DNA of 24,000 nt from Chamaesiphon sp. VAR_4_metabat_408. Lineage in GTDB: Bacteria; Cyanobacteriota; Cyanobacteriia; Cyanobacteriales; Chamaesiphonaceae. The position numbers and the translations under genes were made by a program. Within the stretch, counting starts at the first letter, position 1. The number at the start of each line of letters is the position of its first letter. This document shows positions 1,447 through 18,995 of the stretch, one piece after another. The notes beneath the pieces were generated by a model. The model did not search any database. It worked only from the letters and a program-made list of their open reading frames with translations, and was not told where the DNA came from. Location of the stretch: positions 53,222-77,221 of the forward strand of contig JANOPX010000103.1 of assembly GCA_031422115.1 (NCBI GenBank). Reading direction: 5' to 3'.

Positions 1447-1498
1447 CCGAGCTGACAGTTGTAACCGCATAGAACCAAAGTCTACGGAGTCAGCTCAA

Positions 1499-1530
1499 CC
1501 CTCATACCCTCATACCCTCCCACCCTCCCA
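1499..1530. repeat. short tandem octamer repeat (CCCTCATA x2, CCCTCCCA x2), decaying into CCCCCTACCTCCTCACCC up to 1548
   Basis: Read directly: ccctcata ccctcata ccctccca ccctccca. Sits between the small ORF and the ABC1 kinase start. Confidence 0.8.
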
Positions 1531-1548
1531 CCCCCTACCTCCTCACCC

Positions 1549-3357: not shown

Positions 3358-3490
3358 CATCACGACTCGATCGTCCCGATTTGGGTTTGATCGGATAGTG
3401 AATCGGTATTCATTGTTGGCGTAACCTACCAGAGGTAATCGCTGACAACTATTAAAATTTTAGATCGTTAATCGGCACAGGCATTGGATT

Positions 3491-4213: not shown

Positions 4214-4232
4214 ATATCGACGTTGATTAAAT

Positions 4233-4257
4233 AATAAGTAATAAGTAATAAGTAAGT
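4233..4257. repeat. tandem heptamer AATAAGT x3 plus a partial unit (STRR-like short tandem repeat)
   Basis: Read directly: aataagt aataagt aataagt aagt, immediately after the PP2C stop codon. Confidence 0.8.
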
Positions 4258-4264
4258 TTTTGAA

Positions 4265-4283
4265 ACAGGGATTCAATCCCTGT
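4265..4283 (+). terminator. stem-loop downstream of the PP2C gene (candidate terminator)
   Basis: ACAGGGA-ttcaa-TCCCTGT is a 7-bp perfect stem. A second small hairpin follows (TCTCC-ccat-GGAGA, about 4300-4315). There is no clear U-tract. Confidence 0.4.
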
Positions 4284-4973
4284 CTCAAAAGCGGACTCCT
4301 TTTCTCCCCATGGAGAGGCCATGCCAAAGATGGAGGTCTTTTTTACAATTATTAGTAGTATTTTCGCTAAGAATTCAAACTTACTGGCGATTCTCCCGGA
4401 GATCCGTCAAAGCCCAGCGAGATAAGCTGTCAAACATTTAAAACACTCTTTTTGCCCTCTACAACTCTTGTGGCAAGGGATTCAGTCAAAAGATTTAGAT
4501 GTAAAACAGCTTAATACCTCCATCATATTTATTTGTAACCGTTAGCTTGCCTGAATGAAGTGCCTCGATCGATTGAAACACATTTTTGCTACATTATTTC
4601 AGCCGAGCTATCCCACATCTAAATTGACGGCTGAAATGCTCTTTCCAAAGGGATCTCTATTTATAAAGAGTGCATTTTGCACATAGCACTCCGACGGAGT
4701 ATAACAACTAAGTTGAAAGTACGCTTTGTATAGAGTACCTCAAAGTCAGTGAATTCGTCAAGACTCTTGAGAATAGTCTCAGTTAGCGATCGCCGAAAAT
4801 CATGTAATTTTAACTTTTGTTAAAAAATGTAAAATTAGTTGTAGGCATGACGAGGGAATCTAGTCTGACAGATGTTCGGATTGAAGTTAGGGATGAGAGA
4901 ACGCACCGATCGCTACTCAGGAATATCTGTTAAAATTTGGGTTTGCCCTTGATGTGAACGATAGCTCGATCTT

Positions 4974-7820
4974 ATGACTTCAAATGACCGAGACACAATT
5001 AGGATTCGCGGTGCCAAACAACATAATCTCAAGAATATTAGTTTAGAGCTACCGCGCGATCGATTGATTGTATTTACGGGGGTGTCTGGTTCGGGGAAGT
5101 CTTCTCTAGCTTTTGATACGATTTTTGCGGAGGGTCAACGGCGATATGTGGAGTCGCTAAGTGCTTATGCGCGGCAATTCTTGGGACAGTTGGATAAGCC
5201 CGATGTGGATGCGATCGAAGGTCTGAGTCCAGCGATATCAATCGACCAAAAGTCTACTTCTAATAATCCTCGATCGACTGTGGGTACTGTTACGGAAATC
5301 TATGATTATTTTCGGTTATTATACGGTCGGGCGGGAGTGCCTCATTGTCCAGAGTGCGATCGATCGATCGCTCCACAAACGATCGATGAAATGAGCGATC
5401 GGATTCGCGCTTTGCCAGAGCGAACTAAGTTTCAAATTTTGGCACCGATCGTCAGGGGGAAAAAAGGTACTCACCAAAAAGCTTTATCTAGTCTTGCCTC
5501 GGAAGGGTTTGTCCGAGTGCGGGTGAATGGGGAAGTAAGAGAATTAGCCGATCGAATCGTGCTGGATAAGAATCAAACTCACACGATCGAAATTGTGGTC
5601 GATCGGTTGGTTAATAAGGAAGGGATTGAATCGCGGTTATCTGATTCTCTTACTACCTGTTTGCGTCATGCTGATGGGATTGCGACGATCGATATTTTGA
5701 CAGATGAAGGCGTAGAAGTTAATCCCGATTTACCGACAGAATTAGTATTTTCCGAAAAGTTTGCCTGTCCCGAACATGGCGCGGTGATGGAAGAACTGTC
5801 ACCCAGATTATTTTCCTTTAATTCGCCCTATGGAGCTTGTCCCACTTGTCATGGATTGGGAAGTGCGAAAACATTTGCGCCCGAATTAATCGTTCCCGAT
5901 CCAGATGCAGCAGTATATCACGCGATCGCACCTTGGTCTGACAAAGATAATTCCTATTATTTATCCCTCCTATATAGTTTAGGTCAATCGGCTGGATTTG
6001 CCTTAGATACACCTTGGAAAAAACTTACTCCCGAACAGGTAGCCCTAATTCTCTACGGTAGTGAAGAATTGATTTGGATGGAAGAATTGGACGACCATCG
6101 CCGCTTTAAAGGGGTGGTAAAAATTCTCGATCGGCAATATAGTGATGCCTCGGAAATTCAGAAGCAAAAACTCGAACAATATCTGATCGACCAACCCTGT
6201 AAAGTATGTTCCGGTTATCGACTCAAACCAGAAGCTCGATCGGTTAAATTGGGACAGTATCAGATCCTCGACTTTACCACCGTCGCGATCGATGAATGTC
6301 TCGATCGACTAGCCAAATTAACACTCACCGATAAACAAGCCAAAATCGGCGAATTAGTCCTCAAAGAAATCAAAGCGCGGCTCAAATTCTTACTCGACGT
6401 AGGCTTGGATTATCTCACCCTCGATCGCGCCGCCATGACCCTATCCGGCGGCGAAGCTCAACGAATTCGTCTCGCTACCCAAATCGGTTCCGGCTTAACC
6501 GGAGTACTATACGTCCTCGACGAACCCAGTATCGGACTCCATCAACGAGACAACGGGAGACTCCTCAAAACTCTCAACAAATTGCGCGACCTAGGAAATA
6601 CCCTAATAGTCGTCGAACATGATGAAGACACCATCCGCGCCGCCGACTATCTCGTCGATATCGGCCCAGGTGCGGGCGTACATGGCGGTGAAATTGTCGT
6701 CGAAGGAGATCTTGAAGCACTCCTCAACTCCGAAGCATCAATTACAGGCGCATACCTCTCAGGCAGAGTAGGCATCGAAACCCCAACCACCCGCCGCGAA
6801 GGAAACGGCAAAAATCTAACCCTCAAAAACGCCAGCCGTAATAACCTCAAAAATCTCGACGTAGAATTCCCCCTCGGTAAACTCGTCGCCATCACAGGCG
6901 TATCCGGCTCAGGGAAATCCACCCTAATTAACGAACTCCTTCACCCCGCCTTACAGCATCACCTCACCAAACGAGTACCATTCCCGAAAGACGTAGATGA
7001 ACTCAAAGGAATAAACGCGATCGATAAAGTCATTATCATCGATCAATCCCCCATCGGCCGCACCCCGCGATCGAACCCCGTCACCTACACAGGCGTATTC
7101 GACACCATCCGCGAAGTCTTCACCCAAACCATCGAAGCCAAAACACGCGGCTATAAAGCCGGACAATTTTCCTTCAACGTCAAAGGTGGACGTTGCGAAG
7201 CCTGTAGCGGACAAGGAGTCAACATCATCGAAATGAACTTCCTTCCCGATGTCTTCGTCCAATGCGATGTCTGTAAAGGCGAACGATACAACCGCGAAAC
7301 CCTCCAAGTCAAATATAAAGGCAAATCGATCGCCGATGTCCTCAATATGACCGTCGAAGAAGGCTTAGACTTCTTCCAAAACATCCCCCGCGCCGCCACC
7401 CGCCTCCAAACCCTCGTCGATGTCGGACTCGGCTACGTCAAACTCGGACAAACCGCACCCACCCTCTCCGGCGGTGAAGCCCAACGAGTCAAACTCGCCA
7501 CCGAACTCTCCAAACGCGCTACCGGAAAAACCCTCTATCTCATCGACGAACCCACCACCGGACTCTCATTCTACGATGTCCACAAGCTCCTAGACGTGCT
7601 CCAAAGACTAGTAGACAAGGGAAACTCCATTATCGTCATCGAACACAACCTAGACGTGATTCGCTGCTCCGACTGGACGATCGATCTCGGCCCAGAAGGT
7701 GGTAATAAGGGGGGAGAATTAGTAGCAATCGGGACACCAGAACAGGTGGCGAAGAATCCGGTTTCCCATACTGGGAAATATCTCAAACAGGTACTGAAAC
7801 AACATTCGCGACCAGACTAG
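4974..7820 (+). CDS. uvrA: excinuclease ABC subunit UvrA
   Basis: 948 aa. Starts IRIRGAKQHNLKNISLELPRDRLIVFTGVSGSGKSSLAFDTIFAEGQRRY. Has two ABC signatures ([24 protein letters not shown]), a second Walker A (GVSGSGKST) and zinc modules ([19 protein letters not shown]...CDVCKG). Confidence 0.98.
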   Translation: MTSNDRDTIRIRGAKQHNLKNISLELPRDRLIVFTGVSGSGKSSLAFDTIFAEGQRRYVESLSAYARQFLGQLDKPDVDAIEGLSPAISIDQKSTSNNPRSTVGTVTEIYDYFRLLYGRAGVPHCPECDRSIAPQTIDEMSDRIRALPERTKFQILAPIVRGKKGTHQKALSSLASEGFVRVRVNGEVRELADRIVLDKNQTHTIEIVVDRLVNKEGIESRLSDSLTTCLRHADGIATIDILTDEGVEVNPDLPTELVFSEKFACPEHGAVMEELSPRLFSFNSPYGACPTCHGLGSAKTFAPELIVPDPDAAVYHAIAPWSDKDNSYYLSLLYSLGQSAGFALDTPWKKLTPEQVALILYGSEELIWMEELDDHRRFKGVVKILDRQYSDASEIQKQKLEQYLIDQPCKVCSGYRLKPEARSVKLGQYQILDFTTVAIDECLDRLAKLTLTDKQAKIGELVLKEIKARLKFLLDVGLDYLTLDRAAMTLSGGEAQRIRLATQIGSGLTGVLYVLDEPSIGLHQRDNGRLLKTLNKLRDLGNTLIVVEHDEDTIRAADYLVDIGPGAGVHGGEIVVEGDLEALLNSEASITGAYLSGRVGIETPTTRREGNGKNLTLKNASRNNLKNLDVEFPLGKLVAITGVSGSGKSTLINELLHPALQHHLTKRVPFPKDVDELKGINAIDKVIIIDQSPIGRTPRSNPVTYTGVFDTIREVFTQTIEAKTRGYKAGQFSFNVKGGRCEACSGQGVNIIEMNFLPDVFVQCDVCKGERYNRETLQVKYKGKSIADVLNMTVEEGLDFFQNIPRAATRLQTLVDVGLGYVKLGQTAPTLSGGEAQRVKLATELSKRATGKTLYLIDEPTTGLSFYDVHKLLDVLQRLVDKGNSIIVIEHNLDVIRCSDWTIDLGPEGGNKGGELVAIGTPEQVAKNPVSHTGKYLKQVLKQHSRPD

Positions 7821-7844
7821 CAGTGTCAATTCACTGCTAGTCTG
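7813..7844 (+). terminator. 13-bp perfect hairpin overlapping the uvrA stop codon
   Basis: CAGACTAGCAGTG-tcaatt-CACTGCTAGTCTG (7813-7825 / 7832-7844). No U-tract. It lies just past the point (7807/7808) where homology to the uvrA pseudo-copy ends. Confidence 0.4.
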
Positions 7845-7927
7845 AATGGATAAAGTCGAGCAAAGAAGAGATATAGTTTACGTAGGGGGTATTTAAACAG
7901 CAGAAATCTCGGATTATTAACCTTTTA

Positions 7928-7943
7928 TAGTACTAATGATCTA
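7928..7943. promoter_or_regulatory. LexA-box-like imperfect palindrome TAGTACTAATGATCTA, 40 nt upstream of the AAA+ gene
   Basis: Matches the cyanobacterial LexA consensus as I recall it (RGTACNNNDGTWCB) at 13 of 14 positions. The half-sites are TAGTAC and TAGATC. Confidence 0.3.
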
Positions 7944-7983
7944 AAATAGAGATGTATTCTAAGATGTTGCTGTTTATCGAGCT

Positions 7984-9021
7984 ATGGCAAGGGGGGATAT
8001 ATTACGAAAATTGTTTACCAGCTTCTCTGCTGATGAGAGAGAAGCATTTGTTTCTGCGGCTACAGAACTAATCGAAGAAGAAAAGAGCAAGAATCATACT
8101 TTACTGGCACACGATCTGGAGCGAATACTTCGTAGTGGTAACGGACAATCAAAAACGCTTCGTTTCAATCCTCAGCCTTGGAATGATTTTCCAGAACCAC
8201 CCAAAGACAGGGAAACTGGACTAGCACTACTTTCCGTCAAAAGATTCGATCTTACATGGGAGGAGATCGTCTTGAGTGATTCAGTCAGAAGTATCCTCGA
8301 TCGAGTTGTATTAGAAAATCGGAAACAGGAAATACTTGCGGCTTATGGATTAAAGCCCAAAAATAAATTACTATTTTGTGGCCCACCTGGGTGTGGCAAA
8401 ACACAGACAGCTAAAACACTTGCAAGTGTGATGAGTTTGCCACTCGTCAGTGTTAGTCTTACTGCAATGTTTTCCTCTTATTTGGGAGAAACTGCAACAA
8501 ATCTTCAAAAAATATTCGACTACATCAACGCAGGTGAATGGGTTGTACTGTTTGACGAGTTTGATGCAATCGCCCGCGATCGAAATACACCAAATGAACA
8601 TGGCGAAATTAAGCGGTTAGTTAATAGCTTACTCCAGTTGATAGATCTGTCAGAAAGTAGTAATCTATTTATTGCGGCTACAAACCATGAGAACCTTTTA
8701 GACACTGCTGTTTGGCGAAGATTTGATGAAATTATTTTATTTGAGCGACCCTCCATCGAGATCAGACAAAAATTACTAGGACATTACCTATCTACTATTC
8801 GTTATCGGGAAATAGATCTATTGGCATGTGCTAAACAGATTGAAATGGCAACTGGTGCCGATATTCAGCGGATATGCACAGAGGCTGTGAAATCTGTGAT
8901 TCTCAGAGGTGACAAGGAATTATCCGCAGATGATTTAGATGTTGCTATTGGGAAGTATATTAAGAGAGAGAGCATAGTACATAATTCCACGAAATCCGGC
9001 ATGAGCATTCAGGATGAATAA
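7984..9021 (+). CDS. ietA: classic-clade AAA+ ATPase, IetA-like partner of the downstream S8 peptidase
   Basis: Walker A GPPGCGKT (aa 133-140, nt 8380-8403). Walker B VVLFDEFDA (D191/E192). Sensor-1 and Arg-finger region IAATNHENLLDTAVWRRFD. One AAA module follows a ~120-aa helical N-domain. Its stop overlaps the start of the next gene (ATGAATAA at 9014-9021). The symbol rests on gene architecture only. Confidence 0.6.
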   Translation: MARGDILRKLFTSFSADEREAFVSAATELIEEEKSKNHTLLAHDLERILRSGNGQSKTLRFNPQPWNDFPEPPKDRETGLALLSVKRFDLTWEEIVLSDSVRSILDRVVLENRKQEILAAYGLKPKNKLLFCGPPGCGKTQTAKTLASVMSLPLVSVSLTAMFSSYLGETATNLQKIFDYINAGEWVVLFDEFDAIARDRNTPNEHGEIKRLVNSLLQLIDLSESSNLFIAATNHENLLDTAVWRRFDEIILFERPSIEIRQKLLGHYLSTIRYREIDLLACAKQIEMATGADIQRICTEAVKSVILRGDKELSADDLDVAIGKYIKRESIVHNSTKSGMSIQDE

Positions 9022-11494
9022 TAAATTTGAACATCTGCCATTTAATCGAATCGAAGGCTCATTACCTCGAAGATCTCATGGTGGTGGCAGTGGTGGAGAG
9101 AAGAGAACAGACAGAAGAAGTCAAGGGATACAAATTATTTCACAAATTGGTGAAATCAAAAAAATTGTCCAAGAACAACATAGTAAATTTTCATTAGATC
9201 CAAAACTCATTTTCAAAATTAGGTTGTCTGACAAAAGAAACTTAACAGATGATGATTTAGGAAAATCAGGATTATCGGTTTTAGAAAAGCAGCCAAAAGC
9301 AAATCAAGCAATTGTTGTATTCTCTACAGATCTTGAACTCACTGAATTCACCAATAGGCTAGAGCAGTATAGTGGACTTAAACCTGGATCTGAATATGGT
9401 TATTTGGACGCGATCGAAAGTATTTGTCCACTTGAAGCTGAAGATCGTATAGGTAGATTATTAGAATTGCAACCTTTAGAATTAGAGGAAGTAGCTCTTC
9501 TGGATCTTGAACTGTGGCACACAGGAGATCGGAATGAGATGTCAAAATATCTCAGTGATATTGAGGAGGTATTAAAAAGTATCTCTAATAATCAATCCAC
9601 CTTTAAAATAACAGACAAGTACATTGGTAATTACCTTTGCTTGGCTAGAATTAAGATCGATCGAGAAGTTCTGGATCTATTATTAGAAGAATTTATTGTC
9701 AAAGAAATTAACCGTCGTCCTCATCCGGCTTTTGAGAGTAGATCTGAATATAATCCACCTTTATCTTCATTACCAGATCCAGTCCCTCCCGATCCTAATA
9801 GTTGTGGTATTGTCGTTGTTGATTCTGGTATTCAACCTGGACATCCTTTGCTATCCTCTACTATTGGTGAAGCGGAAGTCTTTTTAAGTAATAGTCAAAA
9901 AGCAACAGGTGGAGAAATCGATCGTTCTGGTCACGGTACTGGTGTTTCTGGCATTGCTGCTTATGGAGATATAGAGAAATGTATCCTTTCTAAGGAATTT
10001 AGATCTTCGGCTAGTATATTTTCTGCAAGAATTTTGGATGATAAAGATGAATATGATGAATATTTATTATTAGAGAATCAACTAGAAGAGGTCGTAAATT
10101 ATTTTACAAAAAATTACCCGAAAATATGCCATGTTTTTAATTTATCTATAGGCAATTGTGATTCAATTTACAATTCAGGCGATAAGCAATTTAGATTAGC
10201 AGCTAAACTCGATGAAATAGCTTATCGATATCAAGATTACGATCTTGTTTTTGTTGTATCAGCAGGAAATGCAAAACCATTCTCCTCAGAGGAAGGAGAG
10301 CGTTATCTTACAGATTATCCTAAATATATTCTCGATTCAAAGTCACGAATAATAGATCCAGCCACATCTGCAATTGCAATTACTGTAGGATCGTTATCTC
10401 TTGGTCGAGGTAGTATAAATAATCCCAATGATGCACAAGTCAATTCGGTTGCAAAAATCAGAGGATATCCATCTCCATTCACCAGAACTGGCTTTGGTGT
10501 CGATGGGATGATCAAACCAGATGTTGTTGCCTATGGTGGTGATTTTGTTATTGACGGAAATCGTATTATGGGTGATGTAAATGCAGCCGTTTCTGTTATT
10601 ACATTGAGTTTGTCTAATATAAGCGGAAAACTCTTTACGATATCTAGTGGTACAAGTCTTGCTGCTCCTTATATATCAAACTTAGCAGCACAATTATTTA
10701 ACAAATATCCTAAAGCATCATCGAATTTAATTCGAGCATTAATAGCCAATTCTGCAAGTTTACCATCACAAATACCAAATGAATTTCAGATAGGATCTGG
10801 ATTGTCTGAAAAAGACAAGACAGCGCAAATGGCTAAACGACTTTCTGTTTATGGATATGGGCAACCTAATCTAGAAAGAGCTATGTATTCAATGGAGAAT
10901 GACGTAGTGCTAGTATGCGATCGTGTGGAAATGGAAATTGGTAATTTTCATGTCTATGAAATACCTGCTTTACCTCCTGAGTTTTTAAAAAATAAGGGTG
11001 AAAGGACTTTATCAATCACTATGGCATTCGATCCACCAACTCGTCATACTCGTGGAGATTCTTATTTAGGTGTGACAATGGGATTTAGTCTTTTCAAAGG
11101 TGTTGATATTGAAGATGTATTGAACAGTTTTGTTGATGCAAAAAAAGCTAAAGAGAATGGGATAGAAGATGACTTTCAGGAGCTTTCAATAGATAATCTA
11201 AAGCAAAGGTGTGGCTCTACTTGCCAGCTAGATTTAAAGCCAGGATCTAGTATAAGAAAAAAAGGAACTCTTCAACGTGGTCAGCTCAAAATCTCAGATA
11301 AAGCAACTAAGTTCGATCTGCCTTTTTATTTAGTTGTAATTTCAAATCGAAAATGGGCAAGACAAGAAGAAATTAAGTTGCAACGATACTCTTTAGTCAT
11401 TTCACTTACACACACAAATGAAGAGGTGAAAGTCTATCATCAGATTCAAACAAAAATTCAGGAACGTTCCAGACAGAAACTTCGGATCAGATAA
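9014..11494 (+). CDS. ietS: S8 (subtilisin-like) serine peptidase, no signal peptide, with ~260-aa N-terminal and ~170-aa C-terminal extensions; IetS-like
   Basis: Catalytic triad in subtilase order: D270 (GIVVVDSGI), H307 (SGHGTGVSG), oxyanion N419 (VSAGN), S548 (SGTSLAAPY). The N-terminus MNNKFEHLPFNRIEGSLPRRSHGGGSGGEK is hydrophilic, so the protein is predicted cytoplasmic. An 8-nt overlap with the AAA+ gene suggests translational coupling. Confidence 0.65.
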   Translation: MNNKFEHLPFNRIEGSLPRRSHGGGSGGEKRTDRRSQGIQIISQIGEIKKIVQEQHSKFSLDPKLIFKIRLSDKRNLTDDDLGKSGLSVLEKQPKANQAIVVFSTDLELTEFTNRLEQYSGLKPGSEYGYLDAIESICPLEAEDRIGRLLELQPLELEEVALLDLELWHTGDRNEMSKYLSDIEEVLKSISNNQSTFKITDKYIGNYLCLARIKIDREVLDLLLEEFIVKEINRRPHPAFESRSEYNPPLSSLPDPVPPDPNSCGIVVVDSGIQPGHPLLSSTIGEAEVFLSNSQKATGGEIDRSGHGTGVSGIAAYGDIEKCILSKEFRSSASIFSARILDDKDEYDEYLLLENQLEEVVNYFTKNYPKICHVFNLSIGNCDSIYNSGDKQFRLAAKLDEIAYRYQDYDLVFVVSAGNAKPFSSEEGERYLTDYPKYILDSKSRIIDPATSAIAITVGSLSLGRGSINNPNDAQVNSVAKIRGYPSPFTRTGFGVDGMIKPDVVAYGGDFVIDGNRIMGDVNAAVSVITLSLSNISGKLFTISSGTSLAAPYISNLAAQLFNKYPKASSNLIRALIANSASLPSQIPNEFQIGSGLSEKDKTAQMAKRLSVYGYGQPNLERAMYSMENDVVLVCDRVEMEIGNFHVYEIPALPPEFLKNKGERTLSITMAFDPPTRHTRGDSYLGVTMGFSLFKGVDIEDVLNSFVDAKKAKENGIEDDFQELSIDNLKQRCGSTCQLDLKPGSSIRKKGTLQRGQLKISDKATKFDLPFYLVVISNRKWARQEEIKLQRYSLVISLTHTNEEVKVYHQIQTKIQERSRQKLRIR

Positions 11495-11542
11495 ATATAG
11501 AGACTCAATTATCCCCTCAACTAACGATCGTGCCGTTACCCC

Positions 11543-11776
11543 ATGCAAATAACTATTAACCTAGATGAATCCTTGCTAGCAGAAGCTCTGCAACTCACCA
11601 AATTCACCACCCATGAAGAACTAGTGAACTTAGCTCTGCAAGAACTCGTGCGTTCACGAAGTGGCTCCTTGGGAGCATCGCGTCGCAAGAAAAATCTCCT
11701 CGACCTTGCAGGACAGATTCAACTTACAGATGACTTCGACACAATCCCAAAACTCTCCAAGATTACAACTAATTAA
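11543..11776 (+). CDS. VapB-family (type II) antitoxin-like protein, no cognate toxin gene downstream
   Basis: MQITINLDESLLAEALQLTKFTTHEELVNLALQELVRSR...KKNLLDLAGQIQLTDDFD fits the small VapB_antitoxin pattern (xTxIxIDDxLLxEAxxL...ELVxxALRELV...LxxLxG). The next 370 nt contain no ORF. Confidence 0.6.
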   Translation: MQITINLDESLLAEALQLTKFTTHEELVNLALQELVRSRSGSLGASRRKKNLLDLAGQIQLTDDFDTIPKLSKITTN

Positions 11777-12149
11777 ACATAAGCATAAAATATAACCCAC
11801 ATTCCGCACTTCAATTTTTACAAAAAGCAATCCATAGCTAAAATCAACTGAGAAGTATATTGTTGATATTGTAAATATCAACAATAAGAGTAAAATGAGT
11901 ATGACAATTTTCTAGTCTTTGCCGAGCTTTAAGAACTAATTGGTCTGAGATATTTAATAATGGTTGTGAGAACAAAGCTTTTTAATACATTATAACTAAA
12001 TTTAAGTGGCTGAATAGTATTGCTGACAAGCTCCAGGTAAAAACTCCAGAAATGGCATCGATTTAGGAGTAGTCACAATCTGGCTACATGAATCAGTAGA
12101 CAAACAATTTAGATTCATCACACTAATTCCAGATTAAGAGGATAAACTC

Positions 12150-12365
12150 ATGAAGCCCAAGCTATTTGAAGAAGTTATTATAAATCGCGATTTCCCGGAA
12201 TATAATATCGACAAGGGAGATATTGCAGTATTAAATGACTTTGTTACCGATCCTTTGGGGGAACAAGGCTGTGTATTGGAAATTTATACGGCGATGGGTG
12301 CTTTTGTAACGGTAGTAAGTTTACCTGTGACAAGTATAGAGACTTTGCAACCAACAGATAGATGA
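12150..12365 (+). CDS. DUF4926 domain protein
   Basis: 71 aa. LFEEVIINRDFPEYNIDKGDIAVLNDFV...GCVLEIYTAMGAFVTVVSLPVTSIETL matches my recollection of the DUF4926 pattern (short SH3-like proteins). A good AAGAGG Shine-Dalgarno lies 8 nt upstream. Confidence 0.55.
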   Translation: MKPKLFEEVIINRDFPEYNIDKGDIAVLNDFVTDPLGEQGCVLEIYTAMGAFVTVVSLPVTSIETLQPTDR

Positions 12366-12446
12366 TCGGTGAGAAGTTGTGTGAATGTTTAGAGATTACG
12401 GATGAAGATTTTAAAATTGCTGAGTTTCAGGGAGATTTAAAGTAAG

Positions 12447-12725
12447 ATGGATATTCAAAAAACCTTGGGCGATTCTCTATCCGATACGCTGCTAGCTCGC
12501 CAGATTGTGCATAGCGATCCAGATATTATGTCAGGTATACCAGTATTTATAGGTACCCGTGTACCGCTTCAAACTCTGTTCGATTATCTTGAAAGTGAAG
12601 AGGGTTTGAACGAATTTTCAGAGGATTTTCCACATCTAAAAATATCTGCGATTCAAGTTTTGGAAGCTATCGCTCGAATCATGCTCTATCAAGGCGAAAT
12701 TCTTAATGCTCATTCTATTGGATGA
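12447..12725 (+). CDS. DUF433 domain protein (putative antitoxin-like partner)
   Basis: IVHSDPDIMSGIPVFIGTRVPLQTLFDYLESEEGLNEFSEDFPHL is the DUF433 core (P.I..G.PvI.GTRipv..i...l..G). It overlaps the next gene by 20 nt. Confidence 0.75.
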   Translation: MDIQKTLGDSLSDTLLARQIVHSDPDIMSGIPVFIGTRVPLQTLFDYLESEEGLNEFSEDFPHLKISAIQVLEAIARIMLYQGEILNAHSIG

Positions 12726-13065
12726 AAATCTTCTAAGTCGAAAACTTAAACAGCCGATTGTTGATGCTGGCTATACTGTTCATAATGTTGATAATATGGG
12801 ATGGCGTGGAACAAAGGATCGAGATCTATTAGCTTTAGCAGATGCTCATCCCTTTGATGTTTTTATCACTGCTGACAAAAATTTACCTTACCAACAAAGT
12901 ATTAGTACTTACCAACTGAGAATTGTTGTCCTAAACACTAAAACTACTAAACCTGACTATCTTGTACCTCTAATAGAGCAAGCTTGTTTGATAATTCCTA
13001 CGCTTGCGGCTGGATCGGTTACACTCATCAATGACGATCGACAAGTTATGTCATTTCAGCCATAG
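12706..13065 (+). CDS. DUF5615 family PIN-like (Mut7-C-like) protein, putative toxin partner of DUF433
   Basis: MLILLDENLLSRKLKQPIVDAGYTVHNV...DRDLLALADAHPFDVFITADKNL fits the typical DUF5615 N-terminus and acidic residues, and the gene shows the usual pairing with DUF433. Confidence 0.7.
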   Translation: MLILLDENLLSRKLKQPIVDAGYTVHNVDNMGWRGTKDRDLLALADAHPFDVFITADKNLPYQQSISTYQLRIVVLNTKTTKPDYLVPLIEQACLIIPTLAAGSVTLINDDRQVMSFQP

Positions 13066-13081
13066 AATTTAAGATAAATGA

Positions 13082-13115
13082 ACGGCTCTCCTTCGCCTAA
13101 GTGGAAGAGAGCCGT
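13082..13115. terminator. hairpin between convergent genes (DUF5615 gene and zorC-like)
   Basis: ACGGCTCTC (13082-13090) pairs with GAGAGCCGT (13107-13115) around a 16-nt loop. It lies in the 75-nt gap between two convergent stop codons. Confidence 0.45.
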
Positions 13116-13140
13116 ACTTAAACAACATACAACCTAAAGC

Positions 13141-14565
13141 TTAACAATCAGTATATGCTCTTGCCTCTACTTCTATTGCGATAATCTCGGATCGCCATCG
13201 AGCTAAACCTCTCTCTCGATCGAGTTCTTTATAAGATTCTGGTTTTCGAGCAGGTGGAATTCCTGGATTGAGAAAAATACCTTTGCTAAATAGCAACTGC
13301 TCGTAATAATATTGCCAAAGATACTTATGGTCGTGAACTTCACCTCCAAGACGGCGAAGACACTTAACAGATAGTTTGTGAGAACCAAAAAGTTGTTGCT
13401 CGATTTCATTATTACGGGCGAACAAACGTATTTCACTACCCTTGCCACGAAAAAACTCGACAACAAAATAACTCCCAAAATCAAAAATGCAAACTTCCGT
13501 AGCTTCGCTACCATCACGTTTGAGAATTTCTATATCGGCTATAAAACCATCACCGCATAAATCGATCGAGTCCTGCGGTACTAAAATCCGAATACGTTGA
13601 AATCTATTAGTGTACTTAGCCCAAAATTCCCGACGTTGTTTTAATCGGTTTTCATCCCAAGAATCAATCCGCAAAACTTCCAGTAGCGTGTCTATTAGAT
13701 TTGCAAAGTCATTATAGTTAACAGAACCAATCCAATCGCGCAAAGCTTGTTTTGCATTTTCAGAAAGCCGATGCCAGAGATCGCCTGTTGTCCTTGGTCC
13801 ATAGGATCTCTGTAACCATTCTACCAATGGAGTTAAAGTACCACCTAATGCTTTTGTTTTCTTCTCGGTGAGAATGTAATCCACCGCTTTTAGTTGTTGC
13901 TCCACCATCATTTTGTCTAAGCACTTTATTAGCCAGTCAACTTGCTCGATAGTTGGATTTTGGCAAAATATAGTAGCTACATATTCCAAAGCATCGATCG
14001 TAATCGCCATCTCAGATGGCAGTTGAGCCTTTTCGAGTAGCTGCTGTGGTGTTAATAAATGTGCATAAGCAATTTTTGCTAGCTTAGAAGCAGGTTGATT
14101 TCCACTTATTGCTTGAATAATAGATCCAAACAGGGGTTTTATTTTCTGAATTTGCTGCAAAAATTCGGCAAGGCACTCTACTAAACTAAGAGCTAAAACT
14201 TGCTGATAATTACCATAATGTAAAGCCAATTGCCAACACAGGATTTGGCGTAGCCATGAATCGGACATTGCTAGTTGCCAAATTGTTCTAGATGTAGACA
14301 CCGATTGATTTAGATGTTCTCGATCCCATTCTTCTTTCGTGTGAATCAGATAAACCCATTCTAATGCACTCACAGAGTCAGCTCGATCGCTTTCAATATC
14401 TATGATAATTTCATCAATACTTCGAGCTTGAAATGGCTCAATATTTAGCAACTTACTTAACTCTGTAAAATCATCACTACCAAGTTTTTCAGCTAATTCG
14501 AGCAGTTGACTCGACGGGTACTGTCTTTTCTTGGAGAAATCAAATAAAAAAGATGGGAATTTCAT
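13141..14565 (-). CDS. zorC: ZorC-like protein (probable EH-signature domain)
   Basis: 474 aa. Third gene of the MotA/MotB-like operon (ATG 2 nt after the zorB-like stop). The C-terminal third reads RREFWAKYTNRF...CIFDFGSYFVVEFFRGKGSEIRLF...GGEVHDHKYLWQ. A conserved-looking Glu (E370) and a His cluster (H411/H413) lie ~40 residues apart, as I expect for the EH_Signature family (PF15611). Not verified by search. Confidence 0.55.
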   Translation of the reverse strand: MKFPSFLFDFSKKRQYPSSQLLELAEKLGSDDFTELSKLLNIEPFQARSIDEIIIDIESDRADSVSALEWVYLIHTKEEWDREHLNQSVSTSRTIWQLAMSDSWLRQILCWQLALHYGNYQQVLALSLVECLAEFLQQIQKIKPLFGSIIQAISGNQPASKLAKIAYAHLLTPQQLLEKAQLPSEMAITIDALEYVATIFCQNPTIEQVDWLIKCLDKMMVEQQLKAVDYILTEKKTKALGGTLTPLVEWLQRSYGPRTTGDLWHRLSENAKQALRDWIGSVNYNDFANLIDTLLEVLRIDSWDENRLKQRREFWAKYTNRFQRIRILVPQDSIDLCGDGFIADIEILKRDGSEATEVCIFDFGSYFVVEFFRGKGSEIRLFARNNEIEQQLFGSHKLSVKCLRRLGGEVHDHKYLWQYYYEQLLFSKGIFLNPGIPPARKPESYKELDRERGLARWRSEIIAIEVEARAYTDC

Positions 14566-14567
14566 AC

Positions 14568-15245
14568 TTATTGCTTTAAATTACTCCCGTTATTTATAGC
14601 TAGATCGAGCTGTTCTCCTTTGAATTGAAAGCGGAACATTACTTTTCGATCCTTTTCATCTATTTTACTATTTGCCTCGATCGCACCTCTTCCTGCTGCT
14701 AAAATTTTAGTTTTCAGCAGTCTCTTTGTTGAAAATCTGATATCTTTAGATAGAATATACTTGGAAACTGAAAGAGATCGAAGCAAGCTTAATTCCAAGT
14801 TTTTATCTTCATCTCCTTCTGAGCTAGTGTGACCCTCAATTACTACTCGTGTGATTTGCTGGGCTATCTCTTTATTATTGGTGTCAAAAATTATTTCACT
14901 GTATTTAGGAATAAATTTATTAAGAAAAGTTTTACCCTCTGGCTTGAGAATGGAACTATTCTTATCAAATAAAATCCCATCTTTAATAGTGACATCTCCA
15001 TTCGCAGCATTAACCTCTGCTTTTATATCAGCAGCTTGTAACTCTTTTGTTAGTGTGTTGATGAAACTTTGCTTTTGCTTGCCAAGCTTTTCTTGAGACT
15101 CTTTGAGTTGAATTAAAGAAGTAACAAATAGCAGTAAAAATAGAAAAAACAAGCTTGACATCAAGTCACTGATGGACAAATAAATACTTGCAGTTTGTTC
15201 ATCATCACCTTCAGATTCTGGTTCGACAACATCATAATCTATCAT
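14568..15245 (-). CDS. zorB: ZorB-like MotB/OmpA-family stator protein (TM plug helix with Asp, plus OmpA-like peptidoglycan-binding domain)
   Basis: N-terminal TM helix with the stator Asp (IYLSISDLMSSLFFLFLLLFV). C-terminal OmpA-like block (FDKNSSILKPEGKTFLNKF...RVVIEGHTSSEGDEDKNLELSLLRSLSVSKYIL). Confidence 0.75.
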   Translation of the reverse strand: MIDYDVVEPESEGDDEQTASIYLSISDLMSSLFFLFLLLFVTSLIQLKESQEKLGKQKQSFINTLTKELQAADIKAEVNAANGDVTIKDGILFDKNSSILKPEGKTFLNKFIPKYSEIIFDTNNKEIAQQITRVVIEGHTSSEGDEDKNLELSLLRSLSVSKYILSKDIRFSTKRLLKTKILAAGRGAIEANSKIDEKDRKVMFRFQFKGEQLDLAINNGSNLKQ

Positions 15246-15454
15246 GTTTAGTTATCTCCCTGCTCTTGACGACGGATCTTTTCAGTCGCAACTAAATAAT
15301 CGGCTGCTTTCAATAGTGTGTTGCATAGCTTGGCTGTAGAACTGTCAGCTTCTTCAAAAAACTTTTGCTCATGTACGATTGCTCGCTGAAAATATTCTGA
15401 TAGCTGCTCATTACCTATTCTGAGAGAGTCTTCATATCGAGTATTTAGACTTCG

Positions 15455-17158
15455 CTAAGAACGCTCTAAATTATTGATTTGTACTCCCATATCCTGTGAA
15501 AGTTCTTGCATCTGAGCAATCCGTGCCCCATCATGCAACCCGACAGTGTTCACTAACTTGCTCACAACTCCGGCTGTACGTTGAATTTTTTCTAAATTAT
15601 CATCTAATTGTTGAGATAGTTGTTTTCGTCTGTCTGCTTCTTCTTGGAAAGCTATCTGGAGTTCAATCACAACATCGGATAAACCTTGACGCTGTGTACC
15701 TAGAGTAGATTCTAATAAATTATTCTGCTCTTTAAAGAATTTATCTAGAGACTCTTGATAAGTTTCACGAAAATTATTTAACTCATCTTGCACTGTTTGA
15801 CTAGTATCTTGCAACATTCCATCGATATTTCCGAGCGTACCTAATAAACTATCCCTTGCCGTATCCATCAGGGTAGATGCTGTATCGCCTACTAATTTAA
15901 GCGTGTTGCTCTGTTGTTGAAAAGCTCTATCTGTATTTGATAGGATTGTATTCATCCGATCTTCAACATTCTGAAGCATTTGCTCTTGACTCGCAGTTTG
16001 CTTAGTGAGTGCTAATTCTAATTCAGTCCGAATATCTCTAAAGGTGTCGGCAGCTTGAGTAGTACTGTCAGAAAAAGCCTCTTGTTGAGCCTTCATACTA
16101 ATGATACTTTCCTCAACTCCTCGTTTAATTTCTGCTCCAACATTTTGAAGCATTTTTTCTTGGCTTTCAGTTTGGGTGGTGAGTGCTGATTCTAATTTAG
16201 TCTGAATACCTATAAAGGTGTTAGCTGCTTGAGTGGTACTATTAGAGAAAGCTTGTTGTTGAGCCTTCATACTAATGATACTTTCCTCAACTCCTCGTTT
16301 AATTTCTACGCCAACATTTTGGAGCATTTGCTCTTGGCTGGCAGTTTGGGTTGTGAGTGCCGCTTCTAATTCAGTCCGAATACCTGTAAAGGTTGTAGCT
16401 GCTTGAGTAGCACTGTCAGAGAAAGCCTGTCGTTGAGATTTCATACCTACGATACTTTCATCCACCCCTCGTTTAATTTCTTCACCTACTTCTTTTAGGA
16501 CATCTTTCGTTCCAGTCTGAAAGTCAACTAATGTATTGCCTAAATTATCTGCAAATCCTTCTAGCTGAGATAATGTTTTTCCTTGAAAATCTTGGATAGT
16601 AATAATTGATAAAGCTAAATCCTTCGATACACTACCCAGTTCATTCTTGAGGCTGATAACTGCTTCTGAAGCTTCTTTTGTTGAACTTGCACTTTCTTTT
16701 AACTGGGAGGATATAGGTACAATAAATTCATCTCTTAGTTTTAAAAGTATATCTTGACCTTGATCTACTTTAAATCCACGTAAGCTTTCTAACTCTTCAC
16801 TGATTTTAATAAAGATTGGGGCAAGAGCTTTTCCAACTTCAACACCAATAGATTTAGAGTCTAGGCTCTGCATCTTTTCCGCAGCATTTATTAATTCTAT
16901 TGATACATTTTTCTCAAATTGAGGTTTGTAATTAAGAATAGATAGTCTTCTTCTTAAATATTTTCTATATATATTTTGAGCATAAGTACTAAAAGCCAAA
17001 AATACGATAAAAAAAGCAGCACATCCTAAACCAAATAGTGACGACATAAATGCTGTTTTCATGCCACCTAGCAGTGTATCAACTCCCGCCTGAAGATTTC
17101 TGGGATCCAGGTGAGAAAGCGCGATCTGAATACCCCAAAAAGTACCCAGCAAACCCAT
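15455..17158 (-). CDS. zorA: ZorA-like MotA/ExbB-family channel protein with ~500-aa helical tail; the tracked ORF is only the central part of a disrupted ~747-codon frame (15248-17490)
   Basis: The ORF begins inside the MotA/ExbB pore motif (MGLLGTFWGIQIAL). A further TM helix follows (AFMSSLFGLGCAAFFIVFLAF), then a long Q/E/T-rich helical tail. The same frame stays open 156 codons upstream and encodes another TM helix (YFSITTIAIFIFAIF), but with no in-frame ATG/GTG/TTG. After the TAG at 15455-15457 the frame continues for 68 sense codons to TAA 15248-15250. See findings. Confidence 0.7.
   Translation of the reverse strand: MGLLGTFWGIQIALSHLDPRNLQAGVDTLLGGMKTAFMSSLFGLGCAAFFIVFLAFSTYAQNIYRKYLRRRLSILNYKPQFEKNVSIELINAAEKMQSLDSKSIGVEVGKALAPIFIKISEELESLRGFKVDQGQDILLKLRDEFIVPISSQLKESASSTKEASEAVISLKNELGSVSKDLALSIITIQDFQGKTLSQLEGFADNLGNTLVDFQTGTKDVLKEVGEEIKRGVDESIVGMKSQRQAFSDSATQAATTFTGIRTELEAALTTQTASQEQMLQNVGVEIKRGVEESIISMKAQQQAFSNSTTQAANTFIGIQTKLESALTTQTESQEKMLQNVGAEIKRGVEESIISMKAQQEAFSDSTTQAADTFRDIRTELELALTKQTASQEQMLQNVEDRMNTILSNTDRAFQQQSNTLKLVGDTASTLMDTARDSLLGTLGNIDGMLQDTSQTVQDELNNFRETYQESLDKFFKEQNNLLESTLGTQRQGLSDVVIELQIAFQEEADRRKQLSQQLDDNLEKIQRTAGVVSKLVNTVGLHDGARIAQMQELSQDMGVQINNLERS
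15964..16485 (-). repeat. three tandem 174-bp (58-aa) repeats inside the ZorA-like tail
   Basis: Units start at 15964, 16138 and 16312 (caacatt[c/t]tg[a/g]agcatt...). Protein units: LKEVGEEIKRGVDESIVGMKSQRQAFSDSATQAATTFTGIRTELEAALTTQTASQEQM / LQNVGVEIKRGVEESIISMKAQQQAFSNSTTQAANTFIGIQTKLESALTTQTESQEKM / LQNVGAEIKRGVEESIISMKAQQEAFSDSTTQAADTFRDIRTELELALTKQTASQEQM, then a degenerate fourth start (LQNVEDRM...). Confidence 0.9.
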
Positions 17159-17511
17159 TGCTGTTAATACAGATGGAATGAAATGTACCTCGCTGCGAGG
17201 AATTGAGCAAGATAGAGATTTTGTACATCTGAGAAAAATGGCTTCTTTATCTCTTATATCTTCTATAAATTCACTCTTTTGACGATCGGAATAATCATCA
17301 ATGGATATCCATACTCTTTGTAAGAATATCTCTATTTGCTTGTTTGGATGCGTGAATTTATGACTACAATTTGGATCGAGGTACTTTATTAGTGAATTTT
17401 CATAAGCAATTCGTTCTCTGGCAACATAAAGTTCTCGAAAAATTGCAAAAATAAATATTGCTATAGTAGTGATTGAAAAATAAGATCCACTAGATATAGT
17501 CCTGATTTTGA

Positions 17512-17862
17512 TTAGTTGTTTTGAGTAAAGCGATCGAGTTCTGCTGATGATAGATGTTTTTGTGCAACTCTTACAGGTAAATGTTCTACATTCCAGCGAG
17601 TATCTATAGGTTCCCGCAGATGCAAACTATACAAAGGTTCATCCGATAATCGATCGTCAAGTGCTAAATAAACTTTTCCTAATGGTGCATAGTTGCGTAA
17701 TAGTCAAATCTGCTTGCAGGTTTTCAAATCGCGGAGGGATTGAGCTAATGGGGCGTTTTGTCGATCGTCGAATAGTTCGCACGCTTCCTTCCAAGCATGG
17801 TTGAGAGCGACGATTTCTGCCACTAGTTGCTCGATCGAGGGGTTAAGTAGATCTGTCATCAT
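17512..17862 (-). pseudogene. small ORF (116 codons) at the head of the Zorya-like operon, interrupted by an in-frame TGA at 17704-17706
   Basis: My translation: MMTDLLNPSIEQLVAEIVALNHAWKEACELFDDRQNAPLAQSLRDLKTCKQI-TGA-LLRNYAPLGKVYLALDDRLSDEPLYSLHLREPIDTRWNVEHLPVRVAQKHLSSAELDRFTQNN-TAA. Both halves look protein-like and are in the same frame. I do not recognise the family. Confidence 0.45.
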
Positions 17863-17979
17863 GTCTGTGATTCATGCAATCTTCAAAAATGTGAGCTATG
17901 TTGTTTTATAGTGCCCTCTGTTTAACAAAAATTACCTCCGATGTCGATCGAGATGTCAGTAGCAATGCACCCCGCGATC

Positions 17980-18102
17980 CATTCGTGTCAACTTAACGAT
18001 ATTGGCAACGAGATTACGTCATTACAGCCACTGTCACGATCGTCATTACTACGAGAGAATAAGGCTTTCAGCACTTATAATTTCCTTAAGTTGACACGAA
18101 TG
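17980..18102. mobile_element. 123-bp MITE-like insertion with 17-bp perfect terminal inverted repeats and a 9-bp target-site duplication
   Basis: TIRs: CATTCGTGTCAACTTAA (17980-17996) and TTAAGTTGACACGAATG (18086-18102). Flanking direct repeat CCCGCGATC at 17971-17979 and 18103-18111. The uninterrupted site is visible in intact uvrA (gcaCCCCGCGATCgaacccc, 7059-7078). Confidence 0.8.
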
Positions 18103-18368
18103 CCCGCGATCGAACCCCGTCACCTACACAGGCGTATTCGACACCATCCGCGAAGTCTTCACCCAAACCATCGAAGCCAAAACACGCGGCTATAAAGCCG
18201 GACAATTTTCCTTCAACGTTAAAGGTGGACGTTGCGAAGCCTGTAGCGGACAAGGAGTCAACATCACCTTTAATGAACTTCCTCCCCGATGTCTTCGTCC
18301 AATGCGATGTCTGCAAAGGCGAACGCTACAACCGCGAAACCCTCCAAGTTAAATATAAAGGTAAATCG

Positions 18369-18393
18369 TTGGCGTAGCCTCTCTGGAGGAGAC
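18369..18393. repeat. 24-25-nt mini-insertion (TTGGCGTAGCCTCTCTGGAGGAGAC) in the uvrA pseudo-copy
   Basis: Intact uvrA reads aaatcgAtcgccgatg (7324-7339). The copy reads aaatcg[ttggcgtagcctctctggaggagac]tcgccgatg. The insert introduces an in-frame TAG. Confidence 0.8.
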
Positions 18394-18746
18394 TCGCCGA
18401 TGTCCTCAATATGACCGTCGAAGAAGGCTTAGACTTCTTCTTTAAACATCCCCCGCGCCGCCACCCGCCTCCAAACCCTCGTCGATGTGGGACTCGGCTA
18501 CGTCAAACTCGGACAAACCGCACCCACCCTCTCCGGCGGCGAAGCCCAACGAGTTAAACTCGCCACCGAACTATCCAAACGTGCCACCGGGAAAACCTTA
18601 TACCCGATTGATGAACCCACCACCGGACTCTCATTCTACGATGTCCACAAGCTTCTAGACGTGCTCCAAAGACTAGTTGACAAAGGAAACTCCATTATCG
18701 TCATCGAACACAACCTAGCCGTGATTCGCTGCTCCGACTGGGCGAT

Positions 18747-18771
18747 TCTCTTGACAGAGAGGCTACGCCAA
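18747..18771. repeat. 25-nt mini-insertion (TCTCTTGACAGAGAGGCTACGCCAA), the inverted copy of the 18369-18393 element
   Basis: Intact uvrA reads gacgat|cgatctcgg (~7679-7693). The copy reads ggcgat[tctcttgacagagaggctacgccaa]cgatctcgg. A 17-nt core (CAGAGAGGCTACGCCAA) is the exact reverse complement of 18369-18385. Confidence 0.8.
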
Positions 18772-18995
18772 CGATCTCGGCCCAGAAGGTGGTAATAAGG
18801 GCGGAGAATTAGTAGCAGTAGGAACGCCAGAACAGGTGGCGAAAAATCCGAAGTCCCATACGGGGAAATATCTCAAGCAGGTGTTGAAACAACATTCAGC
18901 CATGAAAGCTTAACCACGGAGTTTAAGATCGTGCCAGAACTATTAAGTCCAGATTCCCAATATTTAAGCGAATTAATACTGGAGGATTATCTCTA

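Follow-up and report, generated by a model that had tools for sequence, protein, structure and literature searches.

The uvrA 3' end in Chamaesiphon as a probable landing site of stacked anti-phage islands

The stretch of DNA considered here (the window, 24,000 nucleotides) is part of a 77 kb metagenome contig, JANOPX010000103.1 of Chamaesiphon sp. VAR_4_metabat_408, and all coordinates given below are window positions. It carries an intact uvrA gene that is followed by a 10.1 kb block of defence genes with a GC content of 37%, behind which lies a second, decaying copy of the uvrA 3' end. From this arrangement and its counterparts in related genomes, we consider it on balance probable that the end of uvrA in Chamaesiphon is a landing site on which anti-phage islands have piled up, with host homologous recombination in the shared uvrA segment as the favoured route of entry.

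A displaced uvrA 3' end beyond the cargo

The target gene uvrA (4974-7820, plus strand) encodes a protein of 948 aa with the Pfam domains UvrA_inter, UvrA_DNA-bind and ABC_tran, which is 91-98% identical to other Chamaesiphon UvrA proteins (91% to those of Chamaesiphon minutus and C. polymorphus, 95-98% to several JGI metagenome proteins). The shared 3' segment of this gene, 748 nucleotides (nt) at 7060-7807 that belong to the functional copy, is repeated in the same orientation at 17967-18897, a match far beyond chance. The repeat forms the bulk of a displaced and decaying uvrA 3' end (17967-18913, plus strand), a pseudogene with its own SAMKA tail and its own stop codon at 18911-18913. The copy begins with GCACCCCGCGATC at 17967-17979, equal to 7060-7072, after which an insertion of 123 nt (17980-18102) splits off the rest. 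The alignment of 7064-7807 with 18103-18897 consists of five gapless blocks with identities of 99% (164 nt, 1 mismatch), 93%, 100% (47 nt), 94% and 90%, amounting to ~700 of 744 positions (94%) overall; the two copies differ at 46 columns, of which ~20 are private to the remnant. The homology stops at 7807, 13 nt short of the uvrA stop codon, and beyond this point the intact gene ends in SRPD-stop and the copy in SAMKA-stop. An initial annotation made from the letters of the window had described this direct repeat, its start at 17967, its nearly identical first stretch, its end 13 nt before the stop codon and the separate tails SRPD and AMKA, and all of these are borne out by the alignment. 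The same holds for its description of the copy as a pseudogene with three small insertions and two +1 frameshifts; the insertions measure 123, 24 and 25 nt, and the frameshifts are located opposite uvrA 7228-7231 and 7376-7378.

The origin of the copy is indicated by its end. The SAMKA tail and ~120 nt beyond it match the functional uvrA end and the start of the nsnA gene in the related locus L081 at 84-90%, and the tail and downstream DNA also match a uvrA remnant in the locus L163 at 90%. SAMKA is thus the functional tail in L081 (protein P0004) and a remnant tail in L163. Because the tail and the downstream DNA are orthologous to the L081 uvrA end and nsnA start, the copy is a displaced original end instead of a local duplicate: it is the former functional uvrA end of an L081-like arrangement, pushed 11 kb downstream. 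The orthology with L081 and L163 supports the earlier proposal that the insertion restored uvrA and displaced its original 3' end.

Co-transfer of the intact uvrA end with its cargo

The functional end of uvrA shares its recent history with the genes that follow it. Compared with the loci L164 and L165, which carry other genes upstream of uvrA than the window does, the identity of uvrA is 73-80% over the part up to ~6970 and 91-92% from there on, and the similarity continues beyond the gene through IetA (93-96%), IetS (81-91%) and VapB (85%) before it collapses at ~11740. This jump in identity, continuing through IetA, IetS and VapB, implies that the uvrA 3' end and the IetAS-VapB genes were exchanged horizontally as one block. 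The segment that connects the two (7808-7983, plus strand), comprising the island-specific SRPD-stop tail, a 13-bp palindrome and the ietA leader, has DNA homology (81-86%) only with the IetAS-linked loci L082, L164 and L165. The tails at these four loci, SRPD in the window and SCSQ, SRLH and TR in L082, L164 and L165, are variants of one DNA junction. The perfect 13-bp palindrome (7813-7844) overlaps the uvrA stop codon and is not present at the otherwise homologous junctions of the three relatives; possibly, it was inserted here as another small element. The uvrA-ietA junction revealed nothing that resembles a promoter or a terminator.

A similar signal extends over the genus. Among five distant Chamaesiphon lineages, identity at third codon positions is 79-82% at 7074-7673 versus 53-62% in most of the gene, while control sets of Nostoc/Fischerella and of Oscillatoriales display no such 3' jump in identity; among the sets compared, the 3' homogenisation is specific to Chamaesiphon. 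Maximum-chi-square breakpoints for all 36 pairs fall at 6606-7089. For the window, they are at 7089 against L081, 7053 against L082, 7077 against L163 and 7017 against L083, all near the remnant start at 7060, whereas the raised identity to L164 and L165 starts ~165 nt upstream of 7060. Codon bias was considered as the cause of the 3' conservation and rejected, as the region 6500-7000 has the same C/A skew and yet is not conserved. The skew itself is pronounced in the 3' third of uvrA (6500-7500), where the coding strand is strongly C/A-rich (GC skew ~-0.25, AT skew ~+0.25), as a result of which long antisense open reading frames (ORFs) stay open on the minus strand (6951-7307, 7151-7399 and 7571-7786).

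Recurrence at the end of uvrA in related genomes

The presence of uvrA remnants was scored at nine uvrA-linked related loci. A uvrA 3' remnant lies beyond the cargo at five of them (L081, L163, L164, L165 and L083), each truncated differently, and none was seen at the other four (L167, L195, L196 and L082). The cargo between uvrA and these remnants varies: Menshen, VapB and ParDE follow uvrA in L081, ParDE and Tiamat in L163, IetAS and VapBC in L164, and IetAS, VapBC and PDC-M03 in L165. Among the remnant-free loci, L082 carries IetAS and L196 a DUF262-HNH gene, and no recognised defence gene follows uvrA in L167 (C. minutus PCC 6605) and L195. The same position therefore differs in content among relatives, and in the window it holds a cluster of IetAS, ZorABC, PDC-M03 and toxin-antitoxin genes, as is expected of a defence hotspot. 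One duplicate common to all relatives, which the initial annotation had named as an outcome that would speak against its reading, was not found; the remnants and the cargo in front of them vary from relative to relative, and some relatives have no remnant. The comparison for an empty site, suggested at the same time, gave a partial answer: remnant-free sites exist in L167, L195 and L196, but in no relative are both flanks the same as in the window, and a strict empty site was therefore not seen.

The tails of the UvrA proteins tell the same story. In 88 Chamaesiphon UvrA clusters, 54 different tails follow the conserved ...LKQH. Among UvrA bodies that are at least 97% identical over residues 1-690, three groups have 6 tails in 7 members, 14 in 19 and 6 in 7, and the same tails (DRSGKN, SAAVKT, SAMKA) recur in UvrA bodies that are just 86.5-88% identical. 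Tail diversity is uncoupled from the gene body, which argues that the uvrA end is a recombination junction that has been used repeatedly. Furthermore, the remnant tail of L165 (RTQVQINSKP) resembles the functional tail of the UvrA protein P0051 (ARVQLNSKP). Taken together, these sequence comparisons indicate that the displaced end is orthologous to a functional end elsewhere, that the uvrA 3' end and the cargo share a horizontal history, and that the process is recurrent across lineages. As a separate observation, L083 contains a fragment resembling the uvrA 5' end (6897-6990; gene positions 26-142, 69%) ~1 kb upstream of its intact uvrA, and the 5' side of uvrA may be a rearrangement site too in this lineage.

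Search for an integrase

The initial annotation had reported no integrase, recombinase or transposase in the window, and domain scans confirm this, as none of the tested window ORFs has an integrase, resolvase, transposase or recombinase domain. The cargo has no unassigned stretch longer than ~370 nt that could encode an integrase, and no tRNA genes, tmRNA or Rfam families were detected across the window. Neither Pfam matches, scans nor tblastn revealed an integrase in any uvrA-linked island examined, the five remnant-bearing ones included. Protein domains were called with Pfam and defence systems with PADLOC, the islands of the relatives being judged partly by precomputed Pfam matches of their called genes. 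Of the traits expected of integrase islands, flanking direct repeats, foreign composition and variable presence are thus all found here, and a recombinase inside the island is not.

The sole recombinase seen belongs to another locus, L197, which carries the closest relative of the Zorya block in the cargo (81-88% nucleotide identity), elsewhere in its genome. In L197, a tyrosine recombinase of 268 aa (Phage_integrase) lies ~200 nt past the point where the Zorya block of the window abuts the remnant, and it adjoins no uvrA fragment. A tblastn search with this recombinase found no trace of it in the window or in the 11 uvrA loci covered, which also contain no uvrA-specific, integrase-bearing parent element. 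At the 3' end of the L197 recombinase gene (5538-5960), a perfect palindrome of 31 nt, GCATTTTCTAAAGTAATTACTTTAGAAAATG, is present three times at spacings of 174-218 nt; these palindromes may be the recombination sites of this enzyme and do not occur in the window. A different type of recombinase is found next to uvrA in IMG/VR, which yielded only gut-bacterial proviruses beside this gene: a large serine recombinase of 522 aa is encoded on the strand opposite to uvrA, ~200 nt downstream of it (L170 95-3198, human gut). Many IMG/VR proviruses start inside or beside the uvrA 3' end, so phages in other phyla seem to use the neighbourhood of the uvrA end, which provides a precedent for the locus and not a relative.

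Mechanism of insertion

In the mechanism that we favour, an incoming island would bring its own version of the final ~0.75 kb of uvrA, including a final 2-6 codons of its own. Once recombined, uvrA would read into the island-borne end and stay intact, and the resident end would be moved to the far side of the island, where it would be unselected and decay. This could be achieved by a single Campbell-type crossover of a circularised island, for which the circle can come from recombination between direct uvrA copies, or by a double crossover with linear donor DNA, the two arms of which, uvrA and the remnant of the donor, would overlap on the recipient uvrA. Campbell-type integration had been put forward in the initial annotation; the displaced end and the restored gene are supported, but the circular intermediate and the single RecA crossover are inferred only. 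Homologous recombination is favoured because the uvrA-linked islands examined have no integrase, the islands are small and the differences between the copies are mosaic. Moreover, the stretch of 164 nt with a single mismatch and the 47 identical nt remain as a RecA substrate, and some exchange tracts reach upstream of 7060. The mosaic is seen at diagnostic sites, where the NPV codon of the intact copy groups with L081 and L163 and positions 7677 and 7730 group oppositely, although no crossover point is claimed. In a bolder version, which we put forward tentatively as possible, integrase-free islands would use their ~0.75 kb of uvrA as a homology arm that travels with them and would insert, excise and re-insert by host RecA alone, a circle being set free by recombination between the two direct copies and integrated anew by a Campbell crossover. 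They would thereby drive concerted evolution of the 3' end of uvrA, an essential repair gene, across the genus.

Several points weigh against recombination by homology. The breakpoints against four relatives are tightly clustered (7017-7089), as a fixed site-specific crossover would also give. The full-length remnant is present in the window only, and it is from this one case and from the steps in divergence that the left end of the mobile segment is placed. Since the nearest relative of the Zorya block lies beside a tyrosine recombinase, at the very side where the window switches to the remnant, an integrase may have been deleted here. Every relative is a metagenome contig that includes no more than 10 kb of flank, so that distant integrases would go unnoticed. 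Neither a Chamaesiphon-like fragment of uvrA nor any relative of the cargo is contained in the plasmid and phage collections; this negative does not test the idea of a circular element, because such circles need not replicate. Neither a circular form nor an empty-site read nor a dependence on RecA was seen.

The principal alternative, which suits the geometry equally well, is site-specific integration by a tyrosine or serine recombinase at a short core site at ~7060-7072, in the codons for IGRTPRSNP, the enzyme having been encoded on the island and later deleted, or acting in trans from another place in the genome. The islands would carry the whole 0.76-kb uvrA 3' end to restore the gene, and they would now be integrase-less derivatives that keep their attachment (att) sites and are stacked by accretion, as in the cis-mobilizable elements (CIMEs) discussed below. 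The geometry is the same as that of islands that target gene 3' ends (PMC5704250; 10.1101/2020.12.28.424599). The steps in divergence at 7053-7089 (L081, L082 and L163) and at 7017 (L083) coincide with the remnant start at 7060, and this boundary falls in the highly conserved IGRTPRSNP-coding motif with a CGATCG palindrome. The tyrosine recombinase of L197, just past the point that corresponds to the Zorya-remnant junction, and the large serine recombinase directly downstream of uvrA in the gut-bacterial proviruses point in the same direction. However, no integrase or fragment of one is present in the window or the 11 uvrA loci, five remnant-bearing islands of 2-6.5 kb with different cargo all being without, the L197 enzyme is not beside any uvrA fragment, and the raised identity to L164 and L165 begins ~165 nt upstream of 7060. 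We regard site-specific integration as a possibility to be taken seriously but somewhat doubtful.

Two further explanations were considered. If uvrA had been duplicated at its 3' end once, in an ancestor of Chamaesiphon, only the DNA between the copies would since have been swapped by double crossover after DNA uptake (hotspot turnover), without repeated displacement, which would agree with remnants being common in relatives with unrelated cargo and with the exchange between conserved flanks without mobility genes that is known from the minimal mobile elements of Neisseria (PMC3787668). Against such an ancient duplication, the remnant tails differ from one another and serve elsewhere as functional gene ends, PDC-M03 and the remnant do not follow each other in the same order in L165 as in the window, and four loci have no remnant. 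Neither is the window remnant ancient, because its identity to the gene remains at 94% and the long stretch with a single mismatch persists; we consider this explanation very unlikely. The most improbable of all is that uvrA was duplicated locally in situ or that two strains were joined at uvrA sequence in a chimeric metagenome assembly. The window does come from a metagenome contig, and the contig of L002, which ends inside uvrA, breaks in its 3' region as repeats tend to cause. (The genome-contig and metagenome-contig scans gave at least one Chamaesiphon locus each among the matches listed, L002 and L083.) Yet the tail and downstream DNA of the copy are orthologous to L081 and L163 and do not derive from the intact copy, which refutes a local duplication. 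A chimera is opposed by the left junction (17950-17967), which has no sequence in common with uvrA by which an assembler could have been misled, by the private substitutions, insertions and frameshifts of the copy, and by the remnants in five independent contigs from different samples.

Composition of the window

The initial annotation had described the cargo as AT-rich compared with its flanks. The compositional breaks are real, with a GC content of 0.374 for the cargo (7821-17966) versus 0.480 for the left core, 0.510 for the remnant and 0.490 for the right core, but AT-richness is not confined to the cargo: the block that follows the copy on its right (18.9-20.7 kb) has a GC content of 0.381 and does not belong to the core. 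The octamer GCGATCGC, the full highly iterated palindrome HIP1, occurs in the window only at 222, 4038, 4786, 5922 and 21391, so that its absence from ~7.9-17.5 kb and its five flanking positions had been given exactly. The hexamer CGATCG is kept in the cargo, where 19 sites are observed and 1.2 expected (~16-fold over-representation). In the left core (1-7820), CGATCG is found 50 times with 1.7 expected (6.4 per kb) and GCGATCGC only 4 times; it is the hexamer and not the octamer that is the over-represented word in this genome. The enrichment of CGATCG in the cargo fits a cyanobacterial donor or a long residence in a cyanobacterium.

Cargo genes between the two copies

The cargo starts with ietA (7984-9021, plus strand), which encodes an AAA+ ATPase (PADLOC IetA, E = 9.7e-88; Pfam AAA) and has a nucleotide identity of 93-96% to L164 and L165. 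It is followed by ietS (9014-11494, plus strand), coding for an S8 subtilase (PADLOC IetS, E = 1.2e-118; Pfam Peptidase_S8). The two genes are adjacent and intact, and their ORFs overlap by 8 nt, as expected of an IetAS system. Next is a vapB-like antitoxin gene (11543-11776, plus strand; Pfam VapB_antitoxin, E = 1.4e-15) of which the 3' end has been replaced. In L164 and L165, VapB is followed by a PIN-domain VapC; the homology of the window with these loci stops at ~11740, and the vapC partner is missing from the window.

The following genes comprise a small ORF with a weak DUF4926-like match (12150-12365, plus strand; Pfam E = 0.0036, below the curated cut-off) and a pair with DUF433 and PIN-like DUF5615 domains (12447-13065, plus strand; Pfam E = 1.2e-11 and 2.4e-07), which is probably a toxin-antitoxin module. 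The 43 nt upstream of the DUF433 gene (12397-12439) are 95% identical to intergenic DNA after vapC in L165 (17364-17406) and in L166, in surroundings that are unrelated.

The last part of the cargo is a Zorya block on the minus strand. It contains zorC (13141-14565; PADLOC ZorC1, E = 3.8e-160), 85% identical to P0127 on L197, zorB (14568-15245; PADLOC ZorB1, E = 3.3e-66) and zorA (15455-17490; PADLOC ZorA1, E = 5e-181), the 5' end of which is damaged. The N-terminal 120 codons of zorA are in frame but without a start codon, and compared with L197 there is a deletion of 1 nt, 16 nt past the conserved GTG start at 17490. Upstream of zorA lies a pseudogene of a conserved 114-aa gene (17512-17862, minus strand) that is homologous to L197 7043-7387 and has TGA where L197 has CGA; this gene has no Pfam or PADLOC match. 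Three tandem repeats of 174 nt (58 aa) are found in the zorA tail region (15964-16494), and a BLAST comparison suggests another copy number in L197, which would alter the length of the ZorA tail. The ZorA tail is functionally important (PMC11946911).

Type I Zorya needs ZorA, ZorB, ZorC and ZorD to be all present (PMC11946911). ZorD is absent from the window, where toxin-antitoxin genes on the other strand come after ZorC, and the L197 homologue (6963-11425) is also without ZorD. As ZorABC occurs without ZorD in two unrelated contexts, both with the conserved 114-aa gene, it may represent a ZorD-less Zorya variant rather than simple decay. The earlier label of a Zorya-like operon has to be qualified: ZorA, ZorB and ZorC are recognised by PADLOC, but ZorD is missing and there are inactivating lesions.

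The cargo had also been treated as one element, which does not hold. IetAS-VapB (7821-~11740) is common to L082, L164 and L165, and the segment 11741-17950, with the toxin-antitoxin genes and ZorABC, was acquired separately. Composite and in part decayed, the cargo has IetAS intact, VapC lost, and Zorya lesioned and without ZorD.

Insertions in the remnant and the right flank

The insertion at 17980-18102 looks like a miniature inverted-repeat transposable element (MITE), because its ends are perfect inverted repeats of 17 nt (CATTCGTGTCAACTTAA) and 9 nt of target sequence, CCCGCGATC, are duplicated at 17971-17979 and 18103-18111. It sits 4 nt inside the left end of the remnant, and no second copy was found in the window or in the 196 fetched loci. 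Two mini-insertions were found in the alignment of the copies, one of 24 nt (18369-18392, plus strand) and one of 25 nt (18747-18771, minus strand). They share a 17-nt core, TTGGCGTAGCCTCTCTG, in opposite orientation, are both located at a CGAT^CGAT site (the HIP1 core), and each have a short internal hairpin; none of the 196 fetched loci contains their sequences. They seem similar to the very small repeats that are known to be dispersed in cyanobacterial genomes.

Directly to the right of the remnant are fragments of a Menshen nsnA gene (18914-19020, plus strand), leftovers of an older island that were matched to nsnA of L081 (PADLOC NsnA, E = 1.7e-124): 18898-18957 matches L081 8350-8409, and 18960-19020 matches L081 8896-8956 at 90%. 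They are followed by an intact pair on the minus strand (18996-20680), PDC-M03B with a HIRAN domain and PDC-M03A, a HipA-like kinase (PADLOC E = 9e-87 and 5.7e-114), which has 88% nucleotide identity to L165 17608-19308. This block is a second, older AT-rich island with a candidate defence pair and not part of the core. The first core gene on the right is tatC (20760-21563, minus strand; Pfam TatC, E = 5e-65), where the GC content is back to 0.49, and it is followed by thf1 and trpD. Exact-sequence look-ups of the UvrA, TatC and Thf1 ORFs of the window gave no match, the start codons in the collection probably being called differently. At the 3' side of trpD (23606-24000), a unit of ~243 nt is present in tandem, with 98% and 86% identity and G/C-rich hairpin-like stretches; it is cut by the end of the window.

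These features can be arranged into a history, the order of which is inferred. The starting point would have been uvrA with the SAMKA tail, followed by a Menshen island, PDC-M03 and tatC. An IetAS-VapBC island would then have arrived with an S-R-x-x tail, after which the block of toxin-antitoxin genes and ZorABC would have replaced vapC. Finally, the MITE-like element and the two mini-elements would have entered the remnant, Menshen would have been deleted almost wholly, and zorA and its upstream gene would have been inactivated.

Relation to known systems

Accretion of elements at gene 3' ends has been described for integrative and conjugative elements (ICEs), integrative and mobilizable elements (IMEs) and CIMEs, as in the Streptococcus ICESt1/ICESt3 family, where a CIME is an element that has kept its att sites and no longer possesses genes for integration and transfer (PMC5704250). 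The uvrA islands are alike in that sequence brought by the element restores the target gene, each element lies between direct repeats of the gene end, newcomers insert next to the gene, and older, decayed elements without an integrase stay in the array. The window also has the flanking repeats without recombination or transfer genes that characterise a CIME. In contrast to ICE/CIME arrays, which depend on site-specific integrases and short att sites and usually retain at least one functional integrase, the repeat here is ~750 nt long, there is no integrase, and the target is a cyanobacterial uvrA.

The tycheposons, or tRNA-proximal islands, of Prochlorococcus have a site-specific integrase, hallmark replication genes, tRNA or tmRNA targets and att sites of ~40 nt (10.1101/2020.12.28.424599). 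They share with the uvrA islands a cyanobacterial host, repeated integration at one site that pushes older elements inward, partial target copies that mark old events, and cargo for interference with phages. They differ in the integrase, the hallmark replication genes and the tRNA/tmRNA target, none of which is found here, so the island of the window is not a tycheposon.

Defence hotspots flanked by core genes are known in Pseudomonas and E. coli. In Neisseria, minimal mobile elements are alternative cassettes between core genes that are exchanged by homologous recombination (PMC3787668, PMC1797815). As in these systems, the uvrA site holds alternative cassettes at one position without mobility genes, and exchange relies on homology in a conserved flanking gene. 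However, the flank of minimal mobile elements and hotspots is not duplicated, while at uvrA the 3' end of the flank is duplicated and displaced with each event and homogenised across the genus. The duplicated flank sets the locus apart from a minimal mobile element, as does the right flank, for which no conservation across relatives is seen.

An identical product geometry is known from laboratory gene targeting, in which a suicide plasmid with a 3' gene fragment integrates by a Campbell-type event. Such an integration also yields an intact hybrid gene, the insert and then a truncated second copy that starts where the cloned fragment began. It is a laboratory artefact, unlike the natural and recurrent process with defence cargo considered here. 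To our knowledge, no natural recurrent counterpart with defence cargo has been described for uvrA, and a literature search found no paper on the uvrA 3' end as an island site.

Significance of the uvrA end as an island site

The findings provide a simple rule for defence-gene searches, namely to look between uvrA and its decayed 3' copies in Chamaesiphon and perhaps in other cyanobacteria. They also illustrate that island traffic rewrites a core gene, since synonymous sites in the 0.7 kb at the 3' end of uvrA are homogenised across lineages and its last 2-6 codons are hypervariable. For genetic work in these organisms, the uvrA end might serve as a neutral site that already stands ready for insertions. 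If the integrase-free reading is true, the uvrA islands would be a natural example of islands that move with no more than a piece borrowed from a conserved gene and the recombination of the host, and this would bear on the spread of defence islands that lack mobility genes.

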